Positions 33,019-39,416 of a DNA stretch of 64,000 nt are shown in pieces. Origin of the DNA: Limisphaerales bacterium. Its GTDB lineage: Bacteria > Verrucomicrobiota > Verrucomicrobiia > Limisphaerales > UBA11358. The stretch is taken from contig JBBCGE010000004.1 in the NCBI GenBank assembly GCA_037200545.1, positions 310,970-374,969 on the forward strand, written 5' to 3'. Both the position numbers and the translations under genes were made by a program. The notes below the pieces were generated by a model. It saw only the letters and a list, made by a program, of their open reading frames with translations. It did no database searches and was not told where the DNA came from. How positions within the stretch are numbered: position 1 is the stretch's first letter; each line of letters opens with the position of its first letter.

Positions 33019-33717
33019 CTAGAGCGAGACCAACTCGGCTAGCTTGGCCGCAACGTCCGCCATCGGTGCTTCCGCAGTGCTCAGGCCGCTTCGCGACCCG
33101 AGTAGGGGGCTAACTTCGCGGAGAGCTTCATACGTCGTGTTGTGCACGATGGGAACGAGCAGATCACGTGCTAGGAGTGCCGAAAGCTCTTTGTCGGCTA
33201 TTCCCTCTCCTCGGAGGCGACTCAGCAGCGCAGGGGTCACCAGCACGATCCCGACTCGCGATTTCGCTAGTCCCTTGTCAATTTCGCGAAGCAACGGCGT
33301 GCCGAGCGCAACGTCCTTCTCGCTGAACCAGACCGATACACCGCGGGACACGAGCAGATCATGAAGCTCTTTTGCGGCTCCTCCCCGGTCGTCCCATGCA
33401 TGGCAGAGAAAGATGTCCCGAGGGTCAGGCAGGGGCGCTCGCTTCTCGACACTTTCGCGGAATGGCGTGAGTGTCCGCACTTCGGCAGGCGTGTAAACCA
33501 CGGTCGAGCCTGCGCGTGACCACCTTGGCCTTGCGCTGCTACCGGACCCACCGCCACTGCTCTGGCCGCTCCCGCTATTCCCCGACGGAGAGTAGTAGGA
33601 AGGAGGCGAATACGACGAGTAGCCACTGTAGCGGCTTGAGCGCCCACGGCAGGCAGGGCAGGCTTCTGCGGCGCTCGCTGAGCGATGTCCATATACTGGT
33701 GCTGTGCACTGAGCCAT
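33019..33717 (-). CDS. TIR-domain protein with Cys/His N-terminus and Ser/Gly linker
   Basis: DIFLCHAWDD, VWFSE...G..L.REIDKGL..SRVGIVLVTP, KEL, LVPI.H. Confidence 0.85.
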   Translation of the reverse strand: MAQCTAPVYGHRSASAAEACPACRGRSSRYSGYSSYSPPSYYSPSGNSGSGQSSGGGSGSSARPRWSRAGSTVVYTPAEVRTLTPFRESVEKRAPLPDPRDIFLCHAWDDRGGAAKELHDLLVSRGVSVWFSEKDVALGTPLLREIDKGLAKSRVGIVLVTPALLSRLRGEGIADKELSALLARDLLVPIVHNTTYEALREVSPLLGSRSGLSTAEAPMADVAAKLAELVSL

Positions 33718-33791
33718 GTCGCAAATGATATCGAATACCGTCACCCCTTTCAAGCACTGGTGCAAAGTTGCGGGCAAGCCTTTTTGATAGA

Positions 33792-33848
33792 AACGTGTCC
33801 AGAGGCGGTGCCTCTGGTCGCCGGGTTTGGGGACGCGAGAGGCCCCAA
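33792..33848. repeat. Twin-hairpin element, copy 2
   Basis: aacgtgtCCAGAGGC-ggt-GCCTCTGG...TTGGGG...CCCCAA; matches 15211-15270. Confidence 0.7.
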
Positions 33849-33853
33849 CGAGC

Positions 33854-33889
33854 AAAAATGCCCCGCGCAAAAGCGGGGCATGATTTTTT
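33854..33889. terminator. Intrinsic terminator after the integrase (possibly bidirectional)
   Basis: ATGCCCCGC/GCGGGGCAT stem flanked by A and T runs. Confidence 0.6.
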
Positions 33890-33898
33890 CAGTATGCG

Positions 33899-34945
33899 TT
33901 AAGCCGCTACGGCGCTGGCAATCGGCACGATCACGCCAGCGGCGTTTGCTTCGGCCAATTTCTTTTCGTAGTCCTCAAGGGCGGGAATAAACACTTGGGC
34001 GTTTTTGGAATAGGCGCGGTGAATGGCGCGGCTGTTCTGGCCCAAGTTCTCCATTGCGAAGCGTTCCGGCATTCCTGCGCTCTTGGCGCGTTCCGCCCAA
34101 GCGTAACGGTAGCTGTGAAGCGTAATACCTTTAATCTTCAAGCGGCGGCAGGCGCGGGCAAATTCGGTTGCCCGGTGCGCCTCCCGCATGGGTTTCAGCT
34201 TTGGAAATAGCGGGCCGGTAACGGGCAGGGAGCGCAACACCTTCTCAAGTGCCTCCCCAATGCGGATGATGGAAGCGGAGCCGGTCTTGTGCCGGTGAAA
34301 GCTGACAACACGTGTGCGCCAGTCAATATCCTCGGCAGCAATCGCGGCCACGTCGGACTGTGCGCCGCCGATATGCCAGCAACATTCGTAAAACGCCCGG
34401 CGTTCCGCGTTCTGCTCGGCGGTGACAATCGCGTGATGTTCAGTCGGTGTGATGGCGCGTTTTTCCTTAAACCGGACTTTCGGCCATTGCTTCTTGGGCA
34501 GAATCGGCCAGTGAAGCCAGTTCATGTCTAGCGCGAAGTTGTGAATCCGGCGCAAGAAAACATTCGTTGCGACGGTGCCGATTTCCAAGACTTTCAGCAA
34601 GTGCATGGACTGCGTTTCCAGAATCGGCAGATTGCGGATGAGGTCAAAGGCCGGGTCTTTCATCGCGCGTTCGTGGCGGATGCGCGTCGAGCCGGCCTTG
34701 GTCTTGGTCATTTCATCCATCGGCGTCTGCCAAGTCCGCTTGGCGGTTTCCGGGTCGGTGGCCGTCAAATACGTTCGGGCAATCTGGCGGTTTAACACCG
34801 GCTGGCGAAAGGATTCGTTTTTGGCGTTTAGAAGCGTTACGGCTTCGCTTTCGTCTTTCGTCCGCAAGCTGTGCTGCTTGCGGGTCACGGTGTCCTCGCT
34901 GTAATAAACGCCCGCTCGCCGAAACATGATGAATCGAGGTTTCAT
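33899..34945 (-). CDS. Tyrosine recombinase/integrase (inner tRNA-Cys element)
   Basis: TLHSYRY...NLGQ...HRAY; 186 bp from the tRNA-Cys 3' end. Confidence 0.88.
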   Translation of the reverse strand: MKPRFIMFRRAGVYYSEDTVTRKQHSLRTKDESEAVTLLNAKNESFRQPVLNRQIARTYLTATDPETAKRTWQTPMDEMTKTKAGSTRIRHERAMKDPAFDLIRNLPILETQSMHLLKVLEIGTVATNVFLRRIHNFALDMNWLHWPILPKKQWPKVRFKEKRAITPTEHHAIVTAEQNAERRAFYECCWHIGGAQSDVAAIAAEDIDWRTRVVSFHRHKTGSASIIRIGEALEKVLRSLPVTGPLFPKLKPMREAHRATEFARACRRLKIKGITLHSYRYAWAERAKSAGMPERFAMENLGQNSRAIHRAYSKNAQVFIPALEDYEKKLAEANAAGVIVPIASAVAA

Positions 34946-35131
34946 AACTGGTTCACTGTTTTCGGTAAACCAGTCCGGCTTGCCCGCGTTTTAGGAACGC
35001 GAGTTTTGGCGAGTTTCAGCGAGTGCTGACCAGTAGCGGCGAATTGTGATTGACTCGCCGGTTTACTGACAGTTTCACTGACAGTGGCCATTCCGCCCGG
35101 CGTAACTCCTTGCTGCTCACGCAACAAAACT

Positions 35132-35205
35132 TGGAGGCGAGGGTCGGAATCGAACCGACGATGCAGCTTTTGCAGAGCCGTGCCTTACCACTTGGCTACC
35201 CCGCC
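35132..35205 (-). tRNA. tRNA-Cys(GCA)
   Basis: GGCGGGGTAGCCAAGTGGTAAGGCACGGCTCT-GCA-AAAGCTGCATCGTCGGTTCGATTCCGACCCTCGCCTCCA; cloverleaf with encoded CCA. Confidence 0.97.
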
Positions 35206-37392: not shown

Positions 37393-37758
37393 TTATCCCA
37401 ACGGCAAAATACGGGCACGCGCCCGGGATTCATCAAGAACGATCAACGCGCCCTTTTCCAGTTCGGATTCAAATTGTCGGAGCGCACCAGCCACAAGTTT
37501 TCCAACGGCAACCGGCGTCACATCCTGGGTGCGGATTTGAATCACACTTGGCCCTTCCGCCTGCGATAATGCCAGCATGGAGCCGAAATCCAGATCATGC
37601 GTGAAGACGACATGGCCGTTCTGCCTTGCCCAAGCCATGATTTCGGAATCGGCGGCGCGATGGTTACCGACCTTTGACCAGTGAACCGCCTCCCAGCCCG
37701 CCTGTTTGAGAACCGCCACCCATTCAGGTGAAAGATTCATGTCCACCAGCAGCTTCAT
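37393..37758 (-). CDS. DUF5615 PIN-like (VapC45-type) toxin
   Basis: MKLLVDMNLS, D.EI..WA, THDLDFG. Confidence 0.88.
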   Translation of the reverse strand: MKLLVDMNLSPEWVAVLKQAGWEAVHWSKVGNHRAADSEIMAWARQNGHVVFTHDLDFGSMLALSQAEGPSVIQIRTQDVTPVAVGKLVAGALRQFESELEKGALIVLDESRARARILPLG

Positions 37759-37985
37759 GCTGGCTGGAGCGGCATTTCAATCTCTTCCGCCCGCCACGCG
37801 GCATACTTCAACGCCTGGGTGATGTCCTCCGCTTCAAGATATGGATACAACTTCAAAATTTCCGCAACCGCATGGCCGCTGGCGACCAATCCGGTGATGG
37901 TGCCCGCCGTGACGCGCAACCCGCGGATGCAGGCCCGCCCGCCCATGACGTTCGGGTTGAAAGTAATTCGATCCAGCGCTTTCAT
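37755..37985 (-). CDS. DUF433 antitoxin
   Basis: RITFNPNVMGGRACIRGLRV...YPYLEAEDI.QAL.YAA. Confidence 0.9.
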   Translation of the reverse strand: MKALDRITFNPNVMGGRACIRGLRVTAGTITGLVASGHAVAEILKLYPYLEAEDITQALKYAAWRAEEIEMPLQPA

Positions 37986-38039
37986 GGCCGCAAGATAACA
38001 CAGCCCAATCCTGACCGGCAAGTTGTGAAACACTGAATG

Positions 38040-38107
38040 GCGTTCGGCGCGCGGTCAAAAGTGAAGGTGCAGAAAGCTAGGTGCGGCCCCGGACGGTGAC
38101 GTTCATA
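38040..38107 (-). pseudogene. Relic duplicate of the mtnA 5' end
   Basis: Imperfect copy of 37316-37384 with a 28-bp identical core (38080-38107 = 37357-37384). Confidence 0.85.
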
Positions 38108-38513
38108 AATCAACTAACGTCCCAACGCGTTCTTTTCTTGGAAATAAAAAACTTCCAATCAGTGCGCGCCATTTTCTTTTTGAAAGCGAATCCATCACGT
38201 CATTCATAACGTGCAAACACCTCACACCATTTTGTTCCGCTAGTTTCCATTTGCGTCTGTCGTTCAAACTCTGCTTCTCGTCAAAATGATGCGCGCCACC
38301 CGGCTCAATTATCGCTACGGGCTTGTTGCCCCGAAAAACAACTAAATCAGCAGAGCCGTAACGCCAAATATGTTTGAGTCCACTGTTCTCCGGTTCATTG
38401 AAGACTTGTTTCAGCGGAACTTCCAATTTAACACAGAAGAGGCGCGACCACTTTTGCTCAATGTAAGCTTTGATGGTCTCCGCCTCTTCTGTGACTTTCA
38501 AATCATCTAACAT
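38103..38513 (-). CDS. PD-(D/E)XK / Vsr-DUF2726-like nuclease-fold protein
   Basis: EVPL..V...ADLVV...VAIIEPGG.HH...ND..K...GV..L.V pattern; ATG directly after the terminator U-tract. Confidence 0.7.
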   Translation of the reverse strand: MLDDLKVTEEAETIKAYIEQKWSRLFCVKLEVPLKQVFNEPENSGLKHIWRYGSADLVVFRGNKPVAIIEPGGAHHFDEKQSLNDRRKWKLAEQNGVRCLHVMNDVMDSLSKRKWRALIGSFLFPRKERVGTLVDL

Positions 38514-38540
38514 AAAAAACAGCGGGTCATTGCCCGCTGT
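38514..38540 (-). terminator. Intrinsic terminator closing the pentamer array
   Basis: Minus strand ACAGCGGG-caatga-CCCGCTGT followed by a T run. Confidence 0.8.
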
Positions 38541-38613
38541 GCCTGACCGCACCAAGCCTAACCATGCCACACCCTACCTCACCGAACCGAACCCAACCGA
38601 ACCACGCCCCACC
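38539..38613 (-). ncRNA. Putative guide RNA: array of 15 GGY-NN pentamers (VIPR-like)
   Basis: Plus-strand RCC at every fifth base from 38541 to 38611 with no exception; NN variable; starts 9 nt after the RAMP-like stop codon and ends in a terminator. Confidence 0.8.
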
Positions 38614-38622
38614 ATAAATTAT

Positions 38623-39144
38623 TTAAGCAAAGTTGTGAACTTCAAATCTTCCAAACTTGGGACGGTAATCTCCAATTCCTTTACTTTTTCCTGCCTCTTC
38701 CAAAATTTGCTTCAGTGTCTCTTTCTTTATCCGCGTTTCGTCAAAGTTGACGGTAAACTCAATCTCCCACTTGTTAAAACGCGGTCTGGATTTGACAATG
38801 CGCTGGCGTTGAATGACAGCGGGGCGGCGGTCAATTTCGTCGTATGTCTTTTTGCCCATAGGAATCTCTTCTGGCTCAACAAAAACAGATGAAAGAATCG
38901 TCGCCTTCAAACTAGCCTTACCTTTACCTTTGAATTCTTTAGCCGTTTCACGCAAGGTCGCCTCAATCCAACTGGAAGGAACAAAACAACCTTGGTCATT
39001 TCGATACACCGCCTTTTCAGCATCCTCCTTCGAGTCAAATTTTTGATCTCGTCGTTTGGCTTTTTCCTCATCTTCCTGCTCCATTGGAAAACGGTTGTGA
39101 AGCAAAGGAGCAACGCCATGAATTTTTACTTCAACGCTTTGCAT
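38623..39144 (-). CDS. Stand-alone Cas7/RAMP-like protein (Vipr-like)
   Basis: N-terminal strand V.I.G..PLL, helix motif VPSSWIEATL, R..RP thumb, C-terminal glycine-rich loop GIGDYRPKFGRF. Confidence 0.75.
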   Translation of the reverse strand: MQSVEVKIHGVAPLLHNRFPMEQEDEEKAKRRDQKFDSKEDAEKAVYRNDQGCFVPSSWIEATLRETAKEFKGKGKASLKATILSSVFVEPEEIPMGKKTYDEIDRRPAVIQRQRIVKSRPRFNKWEIEFTVNFDETRIKKETLKQILEEAGKSKGIGDYRPKFGRFEVHNFA

Positions 39145-39149
39145 ATCGA

Positions 39150-39416
39150 TTAAGCATCTACACAAATTTCTTCATTAAGCAACCACTCCGGGGCTTTCCA
39201 ATTAGATGGCCTCTGATCGTCGAACATCAACTGAATAAATTGTAGCGCAGCTTGGTAGGCAGATAGAACTTCTGGGATTTTCGGCGCGACCTCGTATGCG
39301 TGGCGCAGTTTTTCCATAGCCCACGCCATTCCCTGTCCGGGCGTGCAATTCCATTTACTGTAACGAACAATCACAGCGGTTTGAATGTATTGAATGAACT
39401 CGGATTGCTTATCCAT
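39150..39416 (-). CDS. Hypothetical 88-aa protein, first gene of the AT-rich cassette
   Basis: Ends 5 nt before the RAMP-like ATG; AT-rich upstream region. Confidence 0.6.
   Translation of the reverse strand: MDKQSEFIQYIQTAVIVRYSKWNCTPGQGMAWAMEKLRHAYEVAPKIPEVLSAYQAALQFIQLMFDDQRPSNWKAPEWLLNEEICVDA

Follow-up and report, generated by a model that had tools for sequence, protein, structure and literature searches.

A chromosomal VIPR locus with a single guide RNA matching a phage capsid gene and a neighbouring gene for a Vsr-like predicted nuclease

The pentamer array on the minus strand of the window, i.e. of the whole 64,000-nucleotide stretch analyzed here, is part of a VIPR system that comprises a Vipr gene, one vrRNA and a gene for a Vsr-like nuclease. 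With high confidence, the array encodes the only guide RNA (vrRNA) of a VIPR system that resides on the chromosome, is directed against a phage capsid gene and employs the predicted Vsr-like nuclease as an accessory. VIPR systems are RNA-guided, CRISPR-like defences and were first described in preprints from 2026 (bioRxiv 10.64898/2026.04.26.720920). According to the main text of this discovery preprint, Vipr is an early-branching RAMP, while the vrRNAs consist of 9–16 GGY/NN (YNNGG) repeats and a structured tail cap. Their NN bases read double-stranded DNA following a “1 nt skip rule”, by which one base, usually the codon wobble position, is skipped per unit. The same text distinguishes seven VIPR types, some of which reside on chromosomes and combine a single vrRNA with predicted nucleases (bioRxiv 10.64898/2026.04.26.720920). 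Because systems of this kind have been in print since April 2026, the present locus is a further member and not the discovery of a new principle. It provides, however, a clean natural test case of a chromosomal, single-guide, nuclease-linked VIPR, whose guide can be decoded unambiguously and leads to a conserved site of the capsid gene, present in complete genomes of uncultured phages, with perfect-site variants that differ solely at skipped wobble bases. The one-skip code is independently confirmed outside E. coli and Pseudomonas, and a guide–target pair is ready for the question of whether nuclease-bearing VIPRs cut DNA.

In the minus-strand direction, from 38613 to 38539, the array is composed of 15 consecutive GG[CT]NN units (GGTGG GGCGT GGTTC GGTTG GGTTC GGTTC GGTGA GGTAG GGTGT GGCAT GGTTA GGCTT GGTGC GGTCA GGCAC). 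A pentamer array of 15 units is far beyond chance, and no run of at least seven GGY pentamers other than the array at 38539–38613 turned up when the entire 3.75-Mb genome was scanned. Tandem Repeats Finder reports just a 4.6-copy core (38581–38603), since the variable NN positions conceal the remainder of the periodicity. No Rfam family was found at the array, a tRNA being the sole Rfam match within the window, and the guide tract does not fold better than its shuffled versions (z −0.01). The cassette has a GC content of about 45%, compared with about 57% in its surroundings. When aligned with three close relatives, the NN positions are identical in 6–14 of 28 cases and the GGY positions in 29–35 of 42.

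The first-pass annotation of this DNA had extracted a string of NN values with 12 distinct dinucleotides and had derived a reverse-complement target string from it, both of which are confirmed by the minus-strand reading. It had further claimed a payload of 15 dinucleotides. This stands for units 1–14 (GG GT TC TG TC TC GA AG GT AT TA TT GC CA) and fails for the AC of unit 15, which belongs to a 3′ hairpin and faces TC at every target site. The decodable payload hence amounts to 14 dinucleotides (28 nt), as unit 15 opens the hairpin and is unmatched in the targets; conversely, the TC opposite this unit at all sites is consistent with the unit being part of the hairpin. The features of the cassette are compiled in Table 1.

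Table 1. Features of the VIPR cassette, with positions numbered from the first letter of the window.
Feature	Position	Strand	Basis
vap-like gene, 136-aa Vsr-like (PD-(D/E)xK superfamily) predicted nuclease	38103..38513	−	Fold and family matches
T run 3′ of the hairpin (six T including the last T of the stem); likely intrinsic terminator	38514..38518	−	Sequence and terminator-like site
vrRNA 3′ tail: conserved last unit GGCAC leading into 8-bp hairpin ACAGCGGG-CAATGA-CCCGCTGT	38519..38543	−	Terminator-like site
vrRNA guide tract: 14 GGY-NN units	38544..38613	−	Sequence and one-skip matches in 7 IMG/VR contigs
Promoter-like TTGAAG-16-AATAAT just 5′ of the first unit	38618..38645	−	Consensus scan, 9/12 matches; weak
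vipr gene, 173-aa stand-alone RAMP (Cas7-like) protein	38623..39144	−	phrog_4652, fold, SUSP1 homology

The decisive evidence for a guide function comes from target searches in IMG/VR, which used one-skip seeds made of units 1–8 and of units 7–14, followed by extension. The first seed matched 21 loci, of which seven extended with 12/12 further bases over units 9–14 and one with 11/12, while the other 13 reached 4/12 at most. The second seed matched 25 loci, including the same seven contigs and one site with 27/28 matching bases, and the two seeds fall 18 bases apart on the seven common contigs. Over units 1–14, seven contigs thus show 28/28 one-skip matches and two more show 27/28. As controls served the 13 non-extending seed matches and three other gap sizes. 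Seeds of the same eight units gave two matches for gap 0 (extensions of 5 and 5 of 12), 14 for gap 2 (best extension 5/12) and 25 for gap 3 (best extension 6/12). Of the target layouts envisaged in the earlier annotation, the one with a single skipped base is therefore borne out, while the contiguous reading as well as those with two or three skipped bases do not rise above chance. Based on our own arithmetic, in which twelve further fixed bases lower the 13 chance seeds by a factor of about 1.7e7, about 8e-7 full-length matches would be expected by chance.

These matches also bear on an entirely different interpretation of the array, namely a TRAP-like leader or protein sponge, in which a multimer would bind the GGY triplets, govern termination at the hairpin and thereby set the expression of the downstream gene, and in which the NN bases would carry no information. 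TRAP of Bacillus is a protein multimer that reads triplets split by short spacers in a (G/U)AG-repeat leader RNA; its spacers are without information, and the protein forms a ring with a fold unlike that of Vipr. The triplets with two-base spacing do recall a TRAP binding site, and a terminator-like hairpin closes the array 5 nt ahead of the downstream start codon. Yet, the spacers of the window array are its payload, as seen from the exact 28/28 one-skip capsid matches, and phage relatives without a downstream Vsr-like gene also carry arrays upstream of vipr, and many per locus. A TRAP-like or sponge function is thus extremely improbable and in practice refuted by the target matches.

The host genome was searched with gaps of 0–3 bases and 30 shuffles of the NN order for each gap, and nothing exceeded the shuffles; the one-skip maximum was 20/30, compared with a mean maximum of 20.97 for the shuffled strings. 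A match of 30/30 at gap 3 was discarded, as it is the array itself and not a target. A previous, non-exhaustive inspection by eye had revealed no match within the window, and neither the window nor the host genome contains a target. Such an absence of self-targets is what one would expect of a guide used in defence. The target site was likewise found in none of 401 sampled genomes of the host phylum when up to three mismatches were permitted.

All nine sites reside in codons 14–27 (W14–P27) of an SU10-type major capsid gene of an uncultured phage group, and it is this 41-bp site that the guide would recognize. In each of these codons, the guide pairs with the first two bases and skips the third. 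Hence, synonymous third-codon changes cannot break the match, which substantiates the earlier suggestion that a 2+1 register could tolerate such changes. Accordingly distributed is the variation among the seven perfect sites, which comprise five distinct sequences: 7 of the 13 skipped positions vary, compared with none of the 28 NN positions. In the two 27/28 sites (L106 and L131), the mismatch goes along with an altered amino acid (N16 to T, and E25 to G). Since a change of a paired base demands an amino-acid change, these two may be escape variants, as judged from their sequences. The locus would exemplify innate, hard-wired RNA-guided immunity at a site that the phage cannot alter silently.

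The identity of the target gene is well supported. The ORF, which opens with MLLE[K/R]NVVGKKTDWANYITLSDEHETP, matches SU10_MCP with an E value of 4e-12 for a fragment and, for the complete gene on three contigs, with values of 1e-29 to 4.5e-39, and it matches the major head protein phrog_1328 with an E value of 3e-15. Records of three target contigs were consulted: a provirus and two complete genomes, the latter measuring 44.6 and 44.5 kb and bearing direct terminal repeats. In cultured phages, no similar capsid gene was found at an E value of 1e-10 among 50,697 phage records.

The proposed mechanism starts with transcription of the minus strand, yielding an RNA about 100 nt long that would contain the 14 GGY-NN units and the conserved 3′ hairpin, which resembles an intrinsic terminator. 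The 173-aa Cas7-like Vipr would then polymerize on this vrRNA with one protomer per pentamer, such that GGY is buried and NN exposed, and the resulting filament would read double-stranded DNA in an NNx register, with two bases paired and one skipped. Alternatively, the vrRNA could act as an antisense RNA on the capsid mRNA and block its translation or trigger its decay. The NN string is complementary to the capsid sense strand at 9/9 sites, which is compatible with pairing to the mRNA. However, the main text of the discovery preprint describes natural targets on both strands, binding of double-stranded DNA and silencing from either strand (bioRxiv 10.64898/2026.04.26.720920), and the cryo-EM preprint reports an R-loop triplex on DNA besides one protomer per repeat and the residues that contact GGY (bioRxiv 10.64898/2026.04.26.720927). 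In addition, the partner protein has the predicted fold of a DNA nuclease. RNA targeting is therefore improbable, and the DNA-directed filament is the preferred reading. The systems covered in the main texts of these preprints are those of SUSP1 and P. fulva, from which filament formation, GGY sequestration, targeting of DNA instead of RNA, and silencing are taken. A third VIPR preprint is tied to the type II system of SUSP1 (bioRxiv 10.64898/2026.10.15.759431).

The assignment of the 173-aa protein as Vipr, whose gene has its stop codon ten bases upstream of the array, is based on several lines of evidence. While no Pfam match was obtained for the protein and PADLOC returned nothing for any of the three cassette proteins, it matches phrog_4652 with an E value of 4e-28. 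Among 243 candidates, 209 homologs were found at an E value of 0.001 or below, and all of the named ones are hypothetical proteins. An AlphaFold model (pLDDT 85.2) gave type VII Cas7 and type III Csm3 as top Foldseek matches in the PDB, with an E value of 3e-5 and a TM score of about 0.5. The C-terminus, GIGDYRPKFGRF, is invariant or nearly so. A profile of 22 family members searched against the phiSUSP1 record hit one ORF with an E value of 9.5e-27, covering positions 2–171 of 173, and direct comparison of the 173-aa protein with SUSP1 Vipr by BLASTP gave 30% identity (E value 2e-23). That this ORF is indeed Vipr follows from the presence of H17, K33, R138, D177, W178 and R179, i.e. the residues in the cryo-EM preprint, and from the one GG-pentamer array upstream and three downstream of it, in agreement with the discovery preprint. 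In the alignment, D159-Y160-R161 of the G-loop corresponds to D177-W178-R179 of SUSP1 Vipr and R120 to the thumb residue R138; all four are invariant or nearly so in the 22 sequences. The SUSP1 residue H17 aligns to N17, next to which lies H16, and K33 falls into a gapped, poorly aligned stretch with a pLDDT below 50. By analogy to its SUSP1 counterpart, the 173-aa protein should coat the vrRNA with one protomer per pentamer.

A family-alignment search furthermore provided 93 related loci, of which 13 belong to bacterial or archaeal genomes; the other 80 are located on viral contigs and are the best 80 of 190 relatives found there. GG-pentamer arrays of at least eight units were found on the Vipr strand of 78 of these loci (240 arrays), compared with one of the 93 loci for the opposite strand. 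Of 3139 units, 2773 have C or T as their third base. Many phage loci (L069, L093, L009, L029 and others) display 4–11 head-to-tail arrays around vipr, which often share terminal units such as GGYAA GGATN, and one to five arrays per locus occur in the clade of the window. Variant repeats were also encountered, with UGU-NN units in L018 (3542–4406) and partly in L015 (3531–3600), and GGA-NN units in L083 (2899–3992). Related consensus forms of the repeat are mentioned in the main text of the discovery preprint (bioRxiv 10.64898/2026.04.26.720920). Homologs of P0003 (88 aa, 39150–39416), of the TPR gene and of the DUF433 gene are present in none of the 93 related loci, for which reason these three are not counted as parts of the system.

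The second protein of the system, the 136-aa gene product, has 118 homologs. Of 21 aligned family members, 14 match DUF2726 (best E value 1.3e-5) and one matches DUF559. While a PDB sequence search yielded nothing significant, VIA-align of the structural model (pLDDT 87.7) placed the Vsr endonuclease 1cw0_A first (Z 9.9, rmsd 2.9, 105 residues), followed by the DUF559-like 3hrl and the catalytic domain of I-Bth0305I (Z 9.2 each). Foldseek gave weak matches, with BstEII at 3e-3. D56, E70, H76, D85 and K88 are invariant in the family. We infer DNA cleavage by the Vsr-like protein as well as its link to Vipr. The nuclease would act as the accessory (Vap) of the system and most likely convert binding into cutting of phage DNA. 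In a DNA-cutting VIPR of this kind, the Vipr filament on the 14-unit guide would recruit or license the Vsr-like nuclease at a 41-bp, PAM-free and wobble-tolerant site. We put this forward tentatively, as a serious possibility that falls short of an even chance. If true, the locus would encode a programmable nuclease made of two proteins, together about 310 residues long, whose guide is encoded in the germline and fixed on a motif of the capsid.

Another option is that Vipr and the vrRNA merely silence, i.e. block transcription of the capsid gene as in SUSP1, and that the Vsr-like protein is otherwise occupied, for example in abortive infection or as an unrelated neighbour. Silencing is the sole activity demonstrated in the main texts of the VIPR preprints, and a site near the 5′ end of the capsid gene would suit a roadblock. 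This is at odds with the distribution of the nuclease gene, which accompanies vipr in 10 of the 93 related loci, and these 10 all belong to a single Vipr clade. A quick maximum-likelihood tree was built from 88 of the 93 loci together with the window and SUSP1, five rows with an aligned stretch below 140 residues having been omitted. In this tree, a 12-row clade with an SH-aLRT support of 96 unites the window with the 10 loci that have a Vsr-like gene and with one truncated locus. Moreover, acidic, His and Lys residues of the nuclease are invariant, the start codon of its gene directly follows the vrRNA hairpin, and the main text of the discovery preprint proposes target destruction for the nuclease-bearing VIPR types (bioRxiv 10.64898/2026.04.26.720920). 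Silencing alone is accordingly rather unlikely, and cutting of DNA by the putative nuclease is given preference here.

The locus can be further placed by comparison with known systems. It shares with the type II VIPR of the Escherichia phage SUSP1, as described in the preprints' main texts, a homologous Vipr, a GGY-NN vrRNA on the Vipr strand, the one-skip wobble code, and targets that lie within a rival mobile element with no self-target. In contrast to the phage-borne SUSP1 system with its four vrRNAs, the window locus is chromosomal and has one. A simple 8-bp hairpin plus T run takes the place of the pseudoknot at the 3′ end of its vrRNA, its accessory is a Vsr-like nuclease instead of the DNA-binding Vap1, and its target a phage capsid gene instead of a satellite; moreover, the two Vipr proteins fall on opposite sides of the deepest split in the quick tree. 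Features are also shared with the nuclease-associated VIPR types III and V of defence islands, which, as far as the main text of the discovery preprint goes, combine a cellular location, a predicted nuclease partner and a single vrRNA with guides that match IMG/VR viruses. For these types, 44 of 63 and 23 of 39 guides, respectively, have IMG/VR matches of at least 80% (bioRxiv 10.64898/2026.04.26.720920). HNH is the sole nuclease domain named in that main text, from which the words “Vsr” and “endonuclease” are absent (bioRxiv 10.64898/2026.04.26.720920), whereas the partner in the window has a Vsr-like fold according to its model.

Vipr resembles the Cas7 and Csm3 proteins of class 1 CRISPR-Cas in its RAMP fold, its G-rich loop and thumb, and in periodic guide binding with flipped-out bases. 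The guide period is, however, 5 nt in VIPR and 6 nt in class 1 CRISPR-Cas. Moreover, in each VIPR unit three guide bases are buried and two are paired, the target is read as 2+1, and the guide is hard-wired in a gene without a repeat–spacer array, all of which sets it apart from class 1 CRISPR-Cas. In line with this, a CRISPR repeat–spacer array with direct repeats of about 25–40 nt was not found between 37000 and 40000, where the period-5 repeat is the only one, and no cas genes were seen among the annotated ORFs.

The 3′ end of the guide is formed by a tail that is conserved in the clade of the window, where arrays terminate in GG[C/T/A]AC followed by a hairpin. In the window, the stem ACAGCGGG/CCCGCTGT spans 38540–38519, and the AC of unit 15 provides its first two bases. 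Across 14 tails of the clade, 97.3% of the cells are paired and six of the eight pairs exhibit changes on both sides; none of 500 shuffles reached the observed score. The T run behind the hairpin is likely an intrinsic terminator and the 3′ end of the vrRNA. The ATG of the nuclease gene (38513) lies 5 nt past the hairpin, with no Shine-Dalgarno sequence visible, and L001 is arranged alike (about 1296–1326). Because the start codon is located just past the hairpin, the nuclease mRNA must read through it, and this read-through may govern nuclease expression and thereby couple guide and nuclease.

On the 5′ side, the promoter-like site is not kept in the relatives upon comparison by eye, and the vrRNA could be processed from the vipr transcript instead of being expressed from its own promoter. 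Parts of the locus are covered by contigs of two RNA libraries, which were made from the sample that also supplied the DNA; these contigs reveal neither strand nor ends and possibly derive from DNA. One such contig stops at 38509, beside the T run; this loose end is a weak hint and does not mark a transcript end. Production of the vrRNA in this organism is inferred.

Several genes in the neighbourhood deserve mention. A DUF5615 (PIN-like) and DUF433 gene pair (37393–38033) directly downstream of the nuclease gene is probably a toxin–antitoxin module; the 93 related loci contain no homolog of it. At a distance of about 3 kb to the VIPR cassette, a TIR-domain protein is encoded at 33019–33870 on the minus strand (TIR_2, E value 1e-12). 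It is accompanied on the same strand by a phage-integrase-family gene (33899–34945) and a tRNA-Cys gene (35132–35205). Together, the three (33019–35205) may constitute a small integrated defence element.

Guides of two further related loci were submitted to target searches that required 8–10 perfect consecutive units and are thus far less sensitive than the 80% rule of the discovery preprint. For L002, a seed of the eight 3′ units gave 41 IMG/VR matches without a convincing target (best extension 8/14); its best candidates are four related loci with 24/30 overall, which is borderline. For L003, the corresponding seed gave eight IMG/VR matches (best extension 6/18), again with no convincing target, and a 10-unit seed gave one match in metagenome contigs (extension 3/14). 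A general validity of the one-skip code within the clade of the window would therefore rest on the count given in the main text of the discovery preprint. The guide of L003 (3534–3623), which stems from a Planctomycetota relative and has 17 units, resembles the window guide in carrying GG GT at units 2–3 and in ending with GC CA. Decoded, it reads W-A ... T-P, and it may be aimed at the same capsid motif of another phage.
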